A stretch of DNA of 42,915 nucleotides. It comes from a virus. Taxonomy: Duplodnaviria > Heunggongvirae > Uroviricota > Caudoviricetes. Positions within the stretch are counted from its first letter, which is position 1, and the number at the start of each line of letters is the position of its first letter. The notes under the pieces are model-generated. The model was not told the DNA's origin. It saw nothing but the letters and a program-made list of their open reading frames with translations, and searched no databases. The position numbers and the translations under genes were made by a program. The stretch is from the IMG/VR virus record IMGVR_UViG_2579779116_000016, positions 1 through 42,915 of that record; one strand, given 5' to 3'. Below, in pieces: positions 1 through 42,915 of the stretch.

Positions 1-1158
1 ATGCTCACCGTTAAGCAGATTGAAGCAGCAAAGCCGAAAGAAAAACCATACCGCCTACTCGATGGTAATGGCCTGTACCTTTATGTCCCTGTGTCAGGGA
101 AAAAGGTATGGCAGCTTCGCTACAAGATTGACGGTAAGGAGAAAATCCTGACCGTCGGAAAATATCCGCTTATGACTTTGCAGGAAGCAAGGGATAAAGC
201 ATGGACCGCGAGGAAAGACATCTCGGTTGGCATCGATCCGGTAAAGGCGAAAAAGGCTTCGTCTAACAACAATTCCTTTAGTGCGATTTACAAGGAATGG
301 TACGAGCACAAGAAGCAAGTCTGGTCAGTAGGCTATGCAACTGAACTTGCCAAAATGTTTGATGACGACATTTTACCCATCATCGGCGGTCTTGAGATTC
401 AGGATATTGAGCCGATGCAACTGTTGGAAGTAATCCGCAGATTTGAAGATCGCGGTGCAATGGAGCGAGCCAACAAAGCACGCAGAAGATGCGGCGAGGT
501 TTTCCGTTACGCTATTGTCACCGGAAGGGCTAAATATAACCCGGCACCTGACCTTGCAGACGCCATGAAAGGATACCGCAAGAAGAACTTCCCGTTTCTT
601 CCAGCAGACCAGATCCCTGCATTCAACAAAGCACTGGCAACATTTTCAGGAAGTATCGTATCGCTCATTGCGACCAAAGTTTTACGCTACACAGCCCTAA
701 GAACGAAAGAGCTTCGTTCCATGCTATGGAAGAACGTCGATTTTGAAAACAGGATTATCACCATCGACGCCAGTGTGATGAAGGGACGCAAAATTCATGT
801 GGTCCCGATGTCGGACCAGGTGGTTGAACTTCTCACTACGCTAAGCTCCATCACTAAACCAGTATCAGAGTTTGTTTTTGCCGGGCGCAACGATAAGAAG
901 AAGCCAATCTGCGAGAACGCGGTATTGCTTGTGATCAAACAAATCGGCTATGAGGGTCTGGAAAGCGGTCACGGATTCAGGCATGAATTCAGCACGATTA
1001 TGAACGAGCACGAATGGCCCGCTGATGCTATTGAAGTGCAACTGGCACATGCCAACGGCGGATCTGTGCGCGGGATTTACAACCATGCTCAGTATCTCGA
1101 TAAGCGCAGAGAAATGATGCAATGGTGGGCGGACTGGCTTGATGAAAAGGTGGAGTGA
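1..1158 (+). CDS. intS: Tyrosine integrase, P4-type, argW-specific (IntS-like)
   Basis: 385-aa ORF starting with ATG at base 1; translation matches my recollection of E. coli IntS of KplE1/CPS-53; position at prophage end next to tRNA-derived att. Confidence 0.88.
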   Translation: MLTVKQIEAAKPKEKPYRLLDGNGLYLYVPVSGKKVWQLRYKIDGKEKILTVGKYPLMTLQEARDKAWTARKDISVGIDPVKAKKASSNNNSFSAIYKEWYEHKKQVWSVGYATELAKMFDDDILPIIGGLEIQDIEPMQLLEVIRRFEDRGAMERANKARRRCGEVFRYAIVTGRAKYNPAPDLADAMKGYRKKNFPFLPADQIPAFNKALATFSGSIVSLIATKVLRYTALRTKELRSMLWKNVDFENRIITIDASVMKGRKIHVVPMSDQVVELLTTLSSITKPVSEFVFAGRNDKKKPICENAVLLVIKQIGYEGLESGHGFRHEFSTIMNEHEWPADAIEVQLAHANGGSVRGIYNHAQYLDKRREMMQWWADWLDEKVE

Positions 1159-1168
1159 TCCACCTTAG

Positions 1169-1618
1169 CTATCGAATGACACAAAGCCTTGAAATCCAGT
1201 GCAAAGCTTTTGGTACCTTGGTTTTGTCTAACGTCAAAGGGCAATCATCAAACTCACCTGTACGCGCATCGTTGATGATGTAGGTGATCACGCCAAACAC
1301 TGGCCGTGATGTATCCGACCCATCGTCTTTCAGCGGTAATGGCTCTCTTCTCCCATTTTCAGGGTTTTCCAGATACGGCTGCGGATGTGTCCTGTAGCGC
1401 ATAATCCTGAACTCACCATCAATAGCGCACACCAATAGAGAACCGTCTTTCGGTGTCAGCGACGAGTCGACGATAAGCATTGCACCTTTCATGATGCCAG
1501 CGCGCAGGTATGTAGAGCCCGCTATCATCATGTACGTAGCCGCCGGATGCGCGATTAGACGCTTGTCGAGCGATATGCGCTCCTCTACGTAATCTTGTGC
1601 TGGACTCGGGAATCCCAT
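1169..1618 (-). CDS. UmuD'-like protein (S24 peptidase/LexA C-terminal fold) beginning at the position of the UmuD' N-terminus; catalytic Ser/Lys apparently substituted
   Basis: 149-aa ORF with ATG and GGAGG RBS; N-terminus GFPSPAQDYVEERI...HPAATY...LIVDS...DGEF...VFGV aligns with UmuD from its Cys24-Gly25 cleavage site onward; positions of UmuD Ser60 and Lys97 appear to be Thr and Met/Arg by eye alignment; LexA box immediately upstream. Confidence 0.6.
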   Translation of the reverse strand: MGFPSPAQDYVEERISLDKRLIAHPAATYMMIAGSTYLRAGIMKGAMLIVDSSLTPKDGSLLVCAIDGEFRIMRYRTHPQPYLENPENGRREPLPLKDDGSDTSRPVFGVITYIINDARTGEFDDCPLTLDKTKVPKALHWISRLCVIR

Positions 1619-1635
1619 AACTCACCTCCGATAGT

Positions 1636-1655
1636 TACTGTATATGCATACAGTA
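1636..1655. promoter_or_regulatory. LexA (SOS) box overlapping the promoter of the UmuD'-like gene
   Basis: Perfect CTGT-N8-ACAG palindrome TACTGTATATGCATACAGTA, 18-37 nt upstream of the minus-strand start codon; candidate -35 TTGATC and -10 TAATAC just upstream on the minus strand. Confidence 0.7.
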
Positions 1656-1743
1656 TTATTGATCGGTGATGTCGATCAAGTGCTGTCTCATTTGATGTCT
1701 AGATGCTAGTATTTATGGCATTGAAAATTACAAGGAATTTGTT

Positions 1744-2406
1744 ATGAAAATTAGCAAGGGTTTGTTGGTGGCTGTGTTATGCGTTGTTGGATTGGCGTTA
1801 ACTTTCTTTATTAGAAGGGAGTATTTATCTAGCGAGAAACAAAACAAAATAAACAACTTCCAATCAGTGATGATGGACTTCAAAGACATGAACCTTGACC
1901 AGGCTGATGGTGACTATATTGTTTTTGGTGACTCTTTGATTCAGGGGATGAGCCATTATATTCTTGGCGTTAAATACGTCAACATGGGTGTTGGTGGGTA
2001 TACAGCATCGCAAATCACACAGTTAATTACATCTTCAAGCTTAGAGAAATATAAGAAAGTGCTCATTGAAGGTGGTGTTAATGATGCTCTTAGTCAATTA
2101 ACAGCAGAGCAGATAGGAAGGAAGATGAATGAAGCAATGGACGCAGCCCATGGAAAGGAGATCGTTCTTATTCAGATTCTACCATTGCTTGAATCTGCCA
2201 GGAAAGATTTCAAGAGAGTAAATGATAAAATACGTACCATCAATGCAATAACATCAAAACATTGCAAATCTATGCCTAAATGCTCTGTTGTTGATGTTCC
2301 AGAAGACTTTTTTAATGCTCCTAATGATTTTTATATGCCTGATGGAGTTCATCTTAGAAGTTATGGTTACCATGCATGGGCAAATCACATCAAACTTGCA
2401 CTATAG
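1744..2406 (+). CDS. SGNH/GDSL-family hydrolase with N-terminal membrane anchor (cargo gene in the lysogenic-conversion slot between int and tailspike)
   Basis: 220-aa ORF, AT-rich; N-terminal hydrophobic segment LLVAVLCVVGLALTFFI; GDSL block IVFGDSLIQG about 20 residues after the anchor; AAGGAA RBS. Confidence 0.7.
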   Translation: MKISKGLLVAVLCVVGLALTFFIRREYLSSEKQNKINNFQSVMMDFKDMNLDQADGDYIVFGDSLIQGMSHYILGVKYVNMGVGGYTASQITQLITSSSLEKYKKVLIEGGVNDALSQLTAEQIGRKMNEAMDAAHGKEIVLIQILPLLESARKDFKRVNDKIRTINAITSKHCKSMPKCSVVDVPEDFFNAPNDFYMPDGVHLRSYGYHAWANHIKLAL

Positions 2407-31293: not shown

Positions 31294-31587
31294 TCAGAAT
31301 TCCATTTGTATTTGTTCAGAACGCTCGGTTGCCGCCGGGCGTTTTTTATTGGTGAGAATCGAAGCAACTTGTCGTGCCAATCGAGCCATATCGTCGTCAA
31401 CGACGCCCCATTCAAGAACAGCAAGCAGCATTGAGAACTTTGGAATCCAGTCCCTCTTCCACCTGCTGATCTGCGACTTATCAACTCCCACAGCTTCCGC
31501 TGTCTTCTCAGTTCCAAGCATTGCGATTTTGTTAAGCAACGCACTCTCGATTCGTAGAGCCTCGTTGCGTTTGTTTGCACGAACCAT
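31294..31587 (-). CDS. cII: CII transcriptional activator
   Basis: 97 aa MVRANKRNEALRIESALLNKIAMLGTEKTAEAVGVDKSQISRWKRDWIPKF..., lambda CII. Confidence 0.95.
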   Translation of the reverse strand: MVRANKRNEALRIESALLNKIAMLGTEKTAEAVGVDKSQISRWKRDWIPKFSMLLAVLEWGVVDDDMARLARQVASILTNKKRPAATERSEQIQMEF

Positions 31588-40126: not shown

Positions 40127-40530
40127 TTAATCGTACCAAGCTGGAGCACATCCTCGAATATGCCAGACAGCAGAAGCGCTTTGGTCAGCATTGCAAAATT
40201 CCGCCAGGAGATATGGTTGAAATCGTGGAGATTGCCATGCGCAAGGCTGGCAACCCTCCGGTAACTCCGGATGGTTGGATAAGCTGTAGTGAGCGAATGC
40301 CTGTAATTGGCGAGCTAAATTGGAGAACTAGTTTTCCTTTACTGGTTACGTGTGAGATCGGCGTTATACCAGCTTATTACGGTTTTGTGAGAGTTAATGG
40401 GAATAAGCATTATGGTTTTATGGAGAGTCTTAAATATGGAGATGATAGCGGCAACCATCCCCAAACTAATGAATATGACCTGATTAGCAATGTCACACAC
40501 TGGATGCCGCTACCAGAGCCTCCACTTTGA
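40123..40530 (+). CDS. DUF551-like protein
   Basis: 135 aa ending ...VTHWMPLPEPPL, the W-x-PLPEPP C-terminal hallmark I associate with DUF551 prophage proteins. Confidence 0.55.
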   Translation: MINRTKLEHILEYARQQKRFGQHCKIPPGDMVEIVEIAMRKAGNPPVTPDGWISCSERMPVIGELNWRTSFPLLVTCEIGVIPAYYGFVRVNGNKHYGFMESLKYGDDSGNHPQTNEYDLISNVTHWMPLPEPPL

Positions 40531-40806: not shown

Positions 40807-40871
40807 TTTATTTATTCATATATGAAAACAATGTAACCAATATTCGAATTGAAGAACTGAAAGAACACCAA

Positions 40872-40893
40872 GCCGCCTGATGGCGGTTTTTTC
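40872..40893 (+). terminator. Intrinsic terminator at the end of the pL operon
   Basis: GCCGCC-TGAT-GGCGG followed by TTTTTTCTT. Confidence 0.6.
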
Positions 40894-40902
40894 TTGCCTG
40901 AT

Positions 40903-40918
40903 TTGCAGGTTCGATTCC
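40903..40918 (+). other. argW-derived segment (T-stem/T-loop portion TTGCAGGTTCGATTCC) upstream of the excisionase gene
   Basis: 16-nt match to the T-arm of tRNA-Arg(CCU) argW as I recall it; tRNA homology stops after GATTCC. Confidence 0.55.
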
Positions 40919-40937
40919 CTATTCGGAGATAGCACTC

Positions 40938-41138
40938 ATGCAACACGAACTACAACCTGATTCACTGGTTGATTTGAAATTCATCATGGCTGATACTGGC
41001 TTCGGTAAGACATTCATCTATGACAGGATTAAGTCCGGCGACCTGCCAAAAGCCAAAGTTATCCACGGACGCGCAAGATGGTTATATCGTGACCACTGTG
41101 AATTCAAAAATAAGCTCTTAAGCCGCGCCAATGGGTAA
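40938..41138 (+). CDS. torI: Excisionase / recombination directionality factor, TorI-like (AlpA-type winged helix)
   Basis: 66 aa MQHELQPDSLVDLKFIMADTGFGKTFIYDRIKSGDLPKAKVIHGRARWLYRDHCEF...; matches my recollection of TorI; located at the prophage end opposite int. Confidence 0.85.
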   Translation: MQHELQPDSLVDLKFIMADTGFGKTFIYDRIKSGDLPKAKVIHGRARWLYRDHCEFKNKLLSRANG

Positions 41139-41211
41139 AATAGCGGGTAAAATATTTCTCACATCTAAAAAACACCATTCTAATCAACCCCCTGCCTCTT
41201 CAAGTAGATGT

Positions 41212-41226
41212 CTGCAGGGGACACCA
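41212..41226 (+). other. Candidate attR core: direct repeat of the argW 3' terminus (CTGCAGGGGACACCA)
   Basis: 15-nt match to the last nucleotides of argW including CCA, same orientation as int; inverted-repeat context CCCCTGC...GCAGGGG. Confidence 0.6.
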
Positions 41227-41667
41227 GATACCCTTCAAACGAAATCTACCTTCACCCCGTAAAAGATGGGTTTGGCAGCACACTTGCCTTATATCTACTC
41301 ATTTTTACTGCAACAGGTTGAAATCTCAGCACTGTCAGAAAGCGCTGATGACTAAACAGCCCTGGGCCGGGCGATGTAACCATCACACAGAATCCTGATA
41401 GCGAAATATGGCGTGACTCGATACTTCACTCCGCAATGCATTCCTTGATGAATTCGCAGGACCGTGATACACGGGACAGGTCACTGAATGACGACAATGT
41501 CCTGGAAATCAGCGAACCGCGCATCTGAAGTACATTTGAGCGACTGTACCAGAACATGAATGAGGCGTTTGGATTAGGCGATTATTAGCAGGGCTAAGCA
41601 TTTTACTATTATTATTTTCCGGTTGAGGGATATAGAGCTATCGACAACAACCGGAAAAAGTTTACGT

Positions 41668-42915
41668 CTATATTGCTGAAGGTACAGGCGTTTCCATAAC
41701 TATTTGCTCGCGTTTTTTACTCAAGAAGAAAATGCCAAATAGCAACATCAGGCAGACAATACCCGAAATTGCGAAGAAAACTGTCTGGTAGCCTGCGTGG
41801 TCAAAGAGTATCCCAGTCGGCGTTGAAAGCAGCACAATCCCAAGCGAACTGGCAATTTGAAAACCAATCAGAAAGATCGTCGACGACAGGCGCTTATCAA
41901 AGTTTGCCACGCTGTATTTGAAGACGGATATGACACAAAGTGGAACCTCAATGGCATGTAACAACTTCACTAATGAAATAATCCAGGGGTTAACGAACAG
42001 CGCGCAGGAAAGGATACGCAACGCCATAATCACAACTCCGATAAGTAATGCATTTTTTGGCCCTACCCGATTCACAAAGAAAGGAATAATCGCCATGCAC
42101 AGCGCTTCGAGTACCACCTGGAATGAGTTGAGATAACCATACAGGCGCGTTCCTACATCGTGTGATTCGAATAAACCTGCATAAAAGACAGGAAAAAGTT
42201 GTTGATCAAAAATGTTATAGAAAGACCACGTCCCCACAATAAATATGACGAAAACCCAGAAGTTTCGATCCTTGAAAACTGCGATAAAATCCTCTTTTTT
42301 TACCCCTCCCGCATCTGCCGCTACGCACTGGTGATCCTTATCTTTAAAACGCATGTTGATCATCATAAATACAGCGCCAAATAGCGAGACCAACCAGAAG
42401 TTGATATGGGGACTGATACTAAAAAATATGCCGGCAAAGAACGCGCCAATAGCATAGCCAAAAGATCCCCAGGCGCGCGCTGTTCCATATTCGAAATGAA
42501 AATTTCGCGCCATTTTTTCGGTGAAGCTATCAAGCAAACCGCATCCCGCCAGATACCCCAAGCCAAAAAATAGCGCCCCCAGAATTAGACCTACAGAAAA
42601 ATTGCTTTGCAGTAACGGTTCATAAACGTAAATCATAAACGGTCCGGTCAAGACCAGGATGAAACTCATACACCAGATGAGCGGTTTCTTCAGACCGAGT
42701 TTATCCTGAACGATGCCGTAGAACATCATAAATAGAATGCTGGTAAACTGGTTGACCGAATAAAGTGTACCTAATTCCGTCCCTGTCAACCCTAGATGTC
42801 CTTTCAGCCAAATAGCGTATAACGACCACCACAGCGACCAGGAAATAAAAAAGAGAAATGAGTAACTGGATGCAAAACGATAGTACGCATTTCTGAATGG
42901 AATATTCAGTGCCAT
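41668..42915 (-). CDS. cscB: LacY-family sugar:H+ symporter, sucrose permease CscB-like (host gene flanking the prophage)
   Basis: 415-aa 12-TM ORF; translation matches my recollection of E. coli CscB; start codon at the last base of the window. Confidence 0.85.
   Translation of the reverse strand: MALNIPFRNAYYRFASSYSFLFFISWSLWWSLYAIWLKGHLGLTGTELGTLYSVNQFTSILFMMFYGIVQDKLGLKKPLIWCMSFILVLTGPFMIYVYEPLLQSNFSVGLILGALFFGLGYLAGCGLLDSFTEKMARNFHFEYGTARAWGSFGYAIGAFFAGIFFSISPHINFWLVSLFGAVFMMINMRFKDKDHQCVAADAGGVKKEDFIAVFKDRNFWVFVIFIVGTWSFYNIFDQQLFPVFYAGLFESHDVGTRLYGYLNSFQVVLEALCMAIIPFFVNRVGPKNALLIGVVIMALRILSCALFVNPWIISLVKLLHAIEVPLCVISVFKYSVANFDKRLSSTIFLIGFQIASSLGIVLLSTPTGILFDHAGYQTVFFAISGIVCLMLLFGIFFLSKKREQIVMETPVPSAI

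Follow-up and report, generated by a model that had tools for sequence, protein, structure and literature searches.

Why should two separate pieces of one transfer RNA (tRNA) gene stand on either side of an excisionase gene at the end of a prophage? The question is raised by the viral record IMGVR_UViG_2579779116_000016 (Caudoviricetes), a stretch of 42,915 nucleotides that we refer to as the window and whose right-hand part carries two segments matching the tRNA gene argW, with the excisionase gene torI between them. We conclude that the downstream segment is the core of attR, the right-hand prophage attachment (att) site. We propose, with a probability of roughly 0.6 for the explanation as a whole, that the upstream segment holds a conserved, argW-derived motif kept as a cis-acting element for excisionase expression.

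Two argW fragments and the prophage boundary

We took the argW sequence from the unoccupied locus CP126600 (GTCCTCTTAGTTAAATGGATATAACGAGCCCCTCCTAAGGGCTAATTGCAGGTTCGATTCCTGCAGGGGACACCA). The upstream segment at 40903..40918 (plus strand) reads TTGCAGGTTCGATTCC and is identical at 16 of 16 bases to argW positions 46-61, which hold the 5′ strand of the T-stem, the T-loop, and the first 2 nt of the 3′ strand. The downstream segment at 41212..41226 reads CTGCAGGGGACACCA and matches argW positions 61-75 at 15 of 15 bases. Because both include position 61, they abut in the tRNA; here they are separated by 293 nt (40919..41211), with torI in the gap. These matches and their arrangement were as the original prediction had described them, namely, a T-arm match of 16 nt and a 3′-terminal match of 15 nt that are contiguous in the tRNA and lie about 290 bp apart in the prophage. 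Neither segment was found a second time in the window, even at 3 mismatches, and a comparison of argW with the window returned no further match of at least 13 nt. For a window of this size, 0.0012 exact argW matches of 16 nt and 0.0049 of 15 nt are expected, and the longest argW match in 100 shuffles was usually 10-12 nt. ARAGORN detected no tRNA gene in the window, so both segments are fragments. Signs of a tRNA-like RNA were likewise lacking, with nothing near threshold in Rfam and no conservation of the 3′ T-stem strand.

The window is a full-length prophage of the HK620/Sf6/KplE1 type, with its IntS/TorI recombination module in argW. Its right-end region matched the P22-like phages HK620, Sf6, HK633, and Kapi1, among others, at 94-97% and the cryptic prophage CPS-53/KplE1 of Escherichia coli K-12 at ~95%. 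At the left end, the tRNA-proximal end of the module, an open reading frame (ORF) of 385 aa (1..1158, plus strand) encodes a P4-type tyrosine integrase with the Pfam domains Arm-DNA-bind_3, Phage_int_M, and Phage_integrase (arm-binding, central, and catalytic); RefSeq names it “prophage integrase IntS” in a locus matching at 99.8%. The window opens with the start codon of intS, and both attL and argW fall upstream of base 1. At the opposite prophage end, adjoining attR, the ORF torI (40938..41138, plus strand) encodes a 66-aa TorI-type excisionase, or recombination directionality factor (RDF). RefSeq calls it torI in matching genomes, and its product aligned over its full length with PDB entry 1Z4H, “Tor inhibition protein” (E = 7e-43), which has the same length and a near-identical sequence.

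Comparison with both empty and occupied argW loci identified the downstream segment as the attR core of this prophage. In Megablast searches, genomes with an empty argW aligned from 41212 (position 713 of a query that began at 40500) to the end of the window at 100% identity. These alignments overlapped the annotated tRNA-Arg, and the empty-site sequence past ...ACACCA (GATACCCTTCAAACG...) was the same as the window from 41227 on. The left end of a prophage in APEC_AN-25, 99.8% identical to window positions 1-2400, showed an intact argW followed by phage DNA (...GGGGACACCA|TTTATCAGTTCGCC...), and its argW/core end stood 161 nt upstream of the intS ATG. Together, these comparisons show that attL has the same core, that the prophage ends at 41226, and that host DNA begins at 41227. 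The core CTGCAGGGGACACCA(T) thus lies at the junction of phage and host, equals the 3′ end of argW, and is repeated at attL of a 99.8%-identical prophage. The original prediction had assigned one of the two segments to the attR core and would have been overturned by an attL sharing neither; the empty-site alignment from 41212 and the published core identify the downstream one, and both the related attL and the unoccupied argW carry it. Mechanistically, the core is the argW 3′ end carried in the phage site attP and duplicated at both prophage ends by an IntS-mediated crossover.

This core was already known, both as pawZ and from the literature on KplE1, HK620, Sf6, and Kapi1. In the K-12 RefSeq genome, CPS-53 ends one base ahead of the same 15-mer, which is itself annotated as the pseudogene pawZ, and an attP core is annotated at the homologous place in HK620 and Sf6. 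The duplicated core was given as CTGCAGGGGACACCAT, 16 nt (Panis et al. 2010), and a study of Kapi1 reported a 17-bp att that contains it. All four elements therefore share the 15-16-nt core CTGCAGGGGACACCA(T) with the argW 3′ end. The base after the core is G here, from the host, rather than T, so the identity between attP and the chromosomal site attB amounts to 15 nt in this prophage. Assigning the core fixes the right boundary of the prophage at 41226, which is a routine result.

From the dyad GATGTC/GACACC (equivalent to GATGTC/GGTGTC) around TGCAGGG, the attR core region at 41207..41226 (plus strand) can be read as a putative C site GATGTC (41207..41212), a 7-bp overlap TGCAGGG (41213..41219), and a B′ site GACACCA (41220..41226). 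The bases around the C site (41204..41212) differ among phages, with TTCGATGTA|TGCAGGG in non-E. coli relatives (L014, L015, L017, L006, and others) and GTAGATGTC in E. coli phages. Since attR here keeps the phage GTA, the crossover lay to its right, within TGCAGGG.... We also observed a small ORF of 43 aa (41131..41262, plus strand) that crosses the attR core into host DNA and is the counterpart of HK620 hkaB and Sf6 gene 17. Those two genes span the attP core, and integration therefore swaps the 3′ end of this ORF.

The upstream segment as part of the phage module

The upstream segment is phage DNA in the torI leader, at the left edge of a mobile xis-attP-int module. Two free phages, HK620 and Sf6, and K-12 KplE1 all carry the 16-mer and its surroundings unchanged, and its presence in free phages means that it cannot be the scar of an earlier integration in the present host, as had been suggested. 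An intrinsic terminator with an 8-bp stem and a T-run (40870..40895, plus strand) closes the eaG region, and the mosaic boundary of the module falls just past it: sequence shared with P22-type phages that have another integration module ended at 40896-40900, and homology to K-12 KplE1 began at 40888. The 16-mer thus starts ~6 nt inside the left boundary of the module. It is not an att core, having phage DNA on both flanks, with host homology only from 41212.

Published experiments bear on the further suggestion that this segment is an arm element. An attR of 135 bp, amplified with the primer attR-IHF2 (CTCTTAAGCCGCGCCAATGG), was sufficient for recombination in vitro. We mapped this primer to 41115..41134, the last 20 nt of torI. 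Because the 135-bp attR starts at the torI 3′ end, the upstream 16-mer is not needed for excisive recombination in vitro, although integration through attP was not addressed by that experiment. By the same evidence, torI is outside the minimal recombination site save its last codons. The idea that torI sits inside the recombination arm therefore holds for those codons, where the first arm-type-like site, GGGTAAAAT, overlaps the stop codon, and fails for the rest of the gene. The 3′ 16-17 nt of another published primer, attL-KpnI (…GCTAATTGCAGGTTCGATTCC), also match the torI leader at 40903..40918, so this primer could mis-prime upstream of torI in PCR on lysogens.

How the two segments relate became clear from non-E. 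coli relatives. There, the attP sequence left of the overlap is (A/G)TTCGATGTA|TGCAGGG, in which the argW T-loop, TTCGAT, lines up exactly with that of GTTCGATTCC|TGCAGGG. The block beside the core thus has its own T-loop homologue in these phages, and the upstream segment, rather than a missing half, is an additional partial copy that overlaps with it. A single tRNA split by insertion of torI is ruled out by this second T-loop copy. We likewise consider it extremely improbable that one argW 3′ fragment was divided in this way or that the upstream copy represents an additional or earlier att core marking an alternative boundary. The pieces do abut in tRNA coordinates, as such readings would have it, but the copies overlap in relatives instead of complementing each other, the host junction occurs only at 41212-41227, the upstream copy is found inside free phage genomes, and the opposite module edge has no second copy (none turned up elsewhere in the window or past intS, either as a second att site or as a module-flanking repeat).

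Blocks of identity with the tRNA 3′ end in the attP of tRNA-targeting integrases are a general principle that a later citing paper credits to Reiter (1989). The copy adjoining the core (TTCGAT..TGCAGGGGACACCA in relatives) is a classical block of this kind, restoring the tRNA on integration. By contrast, the upstream copy is a second one, non-contiguous, 293 nt away across the excisionase gene, outside the minimal att site, and without a part in restoring the tRNA. The phrase “extended attP homology” from the original prediction therefore applies to it in the loose sense of phage-borne argW-like sequence, and not in the sense of a contiguous extension. Williams is said to have described such tRNA 3′-end identity blocks in 2002.

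A conserved motif ahead of the excisionase gene

To follow the upstream segment across relatives, we drew on GTDB genomes, IMG/VR, and phages in GenBank; the excisionase loci collected numbered 278, with 111 distinct leaders. The motif core conserved in the family, GTTCGATTCC(C) (40909..40919, plus strand), stands 29 nt before the torI ATG. At no more than 1 mismatch, GTTCGATTCC was present in 80 of the 111 distinct leaders and 242 of the 278 loci, where chance alone would give 0.0015 per leader, and the G of the motif lay 29 nt ahead of the ATG in 65 of 85 instances. Outside one island, (C)AGGTTCGATTCC(C), the leaders could not be aligned; the island lies ~6 nt ahead of the Shine-Dalgarno (SD) sequence, and its near-invariant part is GTTCGATT.C. 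It was present in leaders from Citrobacter, Serratia fonticola, Pantoea, Edwardsiella, P. stewartii, Hafnia, and Erwinia phages. In the window, the SD sequence of torI is GGAG (40925..40928, plus strand), 6 nt after the motif, and the leader alignment shows its (Y)GGAG context to be conserved.

Conservation of the motif follows argW closely and then breaks off. Across 14 lineages, identity to argW positions 49-61 was 13, 11, 12, 14 (eight times), 10, and 14 of 14, position by position, and fell to 2 of 14 at position 62, the first overlap base, right after ...TTCC. Conservation in this alignment thus stops exactly at the boundary in argW between the putative half-site and the 7-bp crossover region. 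The conserved bases, CAGGTTCGATTCC, are the argW bases directly 5′ of TGCAGGG, that is, the left half-site of attB, made up of the T-loop and two further bases. Beyond the T-arm, similarity to the tRNA in the SD region was at chance level (4/14 matches). Most lineages have CAG or AG before the motif, and TTGCAG, which extends the match to 16 nt, was found only in the E. coli lineage. The Serratia version, TTcCAGGTTCGATTCCTG, matches argW at 17 of 18 bases. Combined, the E. coli and Serratia versions give TTGCAGGTTCGATTCCTG, which suggests that the ancestral sequence may have been a nearly complete argW T-arm.

The motif persisted where other parts of the module had changed. It was kept in a second excisionase clade (~51% identity), which includes Salmonella phages g341c and Emek as well as many IMG/VR contigs; in Erwinia phage phiEt88, whose excisionase is 39% identical, despite different arm-type sites (GGGCATAAA) and P′ arm repeats (CCGATGTAACC); and in a Hafnia lineage whose P′ arm is unrelated and whose integrase shares 45% identity with IntS. 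The argW-type core TGCAGGG was present in every relative found, and TorI relatives down to 39% identity all target argW; matches to Pseudomonas AlpA have a different gene layout. A short copy of the attB half-site (argW T-loop) precedes the excisionase gene at a fixed distance in most argW-targeting xis-attP-int modules, across Enterobacterales and across phage morphotypes. Some Erwinia phages carry the motif in tandem, as CAGGTTCGATTCCCGT|CAGGTTCGATTCCCAC with a 17-nt period (L006, 1784..1815; also L127, L128, and L132), and another locus (L124) has copies with a 14-nt period.

We read the motif as a cis-regulatory element because it stays tied to argW as excisionase and arm specificities drift, stops at the boundary between half-site and overlap, and keeps a fixed distance to the excisionase start. 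It would descend from an ancient captured or duplicated argW T-arm, to judge from the similarity, and selection would have kept it as a cis-acting element controlling excisionase expression. The likeliest binder would be the core-binding and catalytic part of the integrase. We suggest the integrase since it is the only function encoded by the module whose specificity is tied to argW while the excisionase and the arm-type sites change. That its core-binding part actually binds the leader motif is a tentative guess from these sequence patterns, to which we give less than even odds. Such an element would be of interest given that the group that characterized the module concluded that the excision switch rests on expression of the excisionase gene, the main control point and one needing study. 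A conserved element 6 nt upstream of the ribosome-binding site of the switch gene is a concrete and cheap target for mutagenesis, for instance from GTTCGATTCC to CAAGCTAAGG.

Several observations weigh against this cis-regulatory reading. About a quarter of the leaders lack the motif, which is therefore dispensable; in these, xis either follows directly on the upstream gene or has lost the motif by a clean deletion (TTGCCTGG|AGAT). Among E. coli phages, the motif also has point variants. The putative core-type sites C and C′ have only G(A/G)TGTC by the overlap in common, which leaves the conservation of GTTC unexplained. The fixed distance to the SD sequence and ATG would fit a role at the RNA level at least as well as one at the DNA level. 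No intermediate in which the 5′ part of argW is joined to the T-arm and torI was found in 5,426 complete E. coli genomes, where every match started at argW position 46. The tRNA ancestry is itself deduced from similarity, and both the regulatory role and the binding by integrase are put forward as proposals.

The clean deletions (L016, L275, L280, and L282-L287) rebuild an SD sequence right after the terminator (…TTTTTTATTGCCTGG|AGAT…). Such natural motif-deletion alleles are ready-made controls.

That the motif can be lost would also suit a neutral fossil, a functionless leftover of an ancient argW capture by aberrant excision or by deletion within a prophage, carried passively with the module. 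The segment lies within ~6 nt of the mosaic boundary of the module, and the 3′ T-stem strand has decayed differently between lineages, both of which are in keeping with such a history. However, amid flanks saturated with changes, 10-13 nt have stayed near-invariant at a fixed distance from the ATG among excisionases that are only 39-51% identical. A neutral 10-mer would not survive such divergence, and we therefore regard this explanation as unlikely.

The fixed spacing to the SD sequence and ATG led us to weigh a role in the messenger RNA (mRNA), which we also hold to be unlikely. In this case, GGUUCGAUUCC would pair with the SD region (UUCC:GGAG or UUCGA:UCGGA) or mimic a T-loop and so set the level of excisionase translation. 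The E. coli leader fold does pair UUCGA with UCGGA (z = −2.55, terminator included), and for 12 of 14 lineages, most of the SD sequence was predicted to lie in base pairs. Still, RNAalifold returned no consensus structure, and the anti-SD pairing showed no covariation and was no better than after a 1-nt slide. The motif did not occlude the SD sequence more strongly than its composition-matched shuffles did, and a search of the leader in Rfam found no known RNA family.

As for mimicry, TruB-type pseudouridine synthases use the T-loop consensus GUUCNANNC, which the motif fits. Against this, the T-stem lacks a conserved 3′ strand, and the C that is conserved behind TTCC would give an A·C mismatch. 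It is a decidedly speculative and rather improbable idea that GGUUCGAUUCC in the excisionase mRNA leader mimics the tRNA T-loop and is read by a host factor of the TruB/TrmA type, or by integrase on DNA. If true, excisionase synthesis, and hence excision, would be gated by a copy of a tRNA element beside the integration site.

A description of the motif was not found in the literature that we searched, where the 14-mer string was absent; Panis 2007 (JBC) and Menouni 2013 (PNAS) might mention it. The sole annotation of the region is a prediction of pI and a cII site in HK620 and Sf6. The GenBank records of HK620 (a promoter and a cII protein_bind feature, “phage integration”) and Sf6 (pI) cover the equivalent of 40893..40931, and the binding site annotated in HK620 corresponds to TTGC-N5-TTGC at 40894..40906 (plus strand). 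This would make the region a promoter activated by cII that reads across torI and attP into int during lysogenization, and it is analogous to lambda pI in its position upstream of or within xis and towards int, and resembles the lambda-type cII-dependent promoters (pI, pRE) in having TTGC direct repeats. However, no canonical TTGC-N6-TTGC straddling a −35 region was present, with a spacing of N5 here as opposed to N6 at the window's own pRE-like site (31565..31578), and N5 pairs occur at about the chance rate (6 observed, 3.9 expected). In relatives, the second TTGC becomes TTCC, TGAC, or similar, and the conserved block is the would-be spacer. Moreover, a scan of the leader found no sigma-70-like promoter, and the literature gives intS its own mapped promoter. 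We therefore consider a pI promoter improbable as the explanation of the motif.

A final candidate is a sixth binding site for TorI that would serve torI autoregulation. The five known sites, I1-I5, lie in the P′ arm of attL at +7, +27, +70, +80, and +90 (Panis et al. 2010), and we located them on K-12 from the published coordinates as CAGTTCGC, CAGTCCGC, CAGTTCGT, TGGTTCGC, and CAGATCGT. They contain GTTCG, GATCG, or GTCCG, and the leader motif shares the pentamer GTTCG and, as noted above, is repeated in tandem in some phages. However, among 45 sites taken from 9 P′ arms, all 45 had a pyrimidine both 2 nt ahead of GTTCG and directly behind it. The motif, which lies in the torI leader rather than in the P′ arm, has A at both positions and does not fit Y-R-GTTCG-Y. 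The P′ arm of phiEt88 repeats CCGATGTAACC in place of GTTCG, yet its leader motif is unchanged; the motif is thus constant where excisionase sites change and does not co-vary with RDF specificity. In addition, the conserved ATTCC extension is not present in TorI sites. A TorI site in the leader is accordingly very unlikely.

The recombination arm, related modules, and flanking DNA

Apart from the core, the module in the window closely resembles those of KplE1 (CPS-53), HK620, Sf6, and Kapi1. They have the same layout, with intS by attL and torI by attR, the same pair of GGGTAAAAT sites at the torI stop codon, a TorI that is 100% identical, and the same T-arm 16-mer upstream of torI. Unlike KplE1, which is a 10-kb remnant flanked by dsdC, the prophage here is full-length (~41 kb, P22-like) and is flanked by the csc sucrose locus of the host.

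The two GGGTAAAAT copies, at 41133..41141 and 41145..41153 (plus strand), are direct arm-type-like integrase sites conserved in relatives, and a TAAA motif has been described for IntS arm-type sites (Panis 2010). Within torI itself, codons 3-5 (CAC GAA CTA; 40944..40953) hold TAGTTCGT on the minus strand, a perfect octamer resembling an inverted TorI site; it lies 37 nt from the GTTCG of the leader and is specific to the E. coli lineage. Further along the P arm, the sequence AATCAACCCCCTG (41182..41196, plus strand) is presumably an integration host factor (IHF) site, which we assume from the consensus WATCAANNNNTTR. It overlaps CCCCTGC (41189..41195), the left copy of an inverted repeat with the core.

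This inverted repeat, CCCCTGC(C/A) ... 16 nt ... TGCAGGGG (41189..41196 and 41213..41220), joins the P arm to the att core. Its spacing was constant in 24 diverged lineages, with 90.6% of cells paired, and two compensatory changes were seen, in Rouxiella (CCCCTACA/TGTAGGGG) and in Edwardsiella (TCCCTGCA/TGCAGGGA), a result reached in 8 of 500 shuffles. The repeat may form an RNA hairpin in the 3′ untranslated region of xis, reflect a DNA symmetry, or be a coincidence. The 5 nt at 41196..41200 (CTCTT here), between CCCCTGC and CAAGTAGATGTC, form a spacer that was hypervariable among E. coli-type loci, with both flanks invariant. At least 10 variants were present, including TGCTT, ATCGT, CGCGC, CGCTT, TGCCT, CGCCT, CTCGT, CGCGT, and AACCT.

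In the Hafnia lineage mentioned above (L193, 1501..3134), xis, attP, and int are contiguous in a chromosome-sized contig of 4.87 Mb, a layout that looks unintegrated. Its xis, P arm, and leader motif are of the TorI-module type, and its integrase (45% to IntS) and P′ arm are not; from these sequences, the two module halves appear to have been exchanged at the core.

Elsewhere in the window, TTGCGTTTGTTTGC at 31565..31578 (plus strand) is identical to the cII-binding repeats of lambda pRE and presumably belongs to the phage's own pRE. Past the prophage, the host chromosome that follows argW occupies positions 41227..42915. This part showed 100% identity to unoccupied argW loci and includes the host sucrose permease gene cscB (41668..42915, minus strand), which matched the NCBIfam oligosaccharide MFS transporter model at 594 bits.

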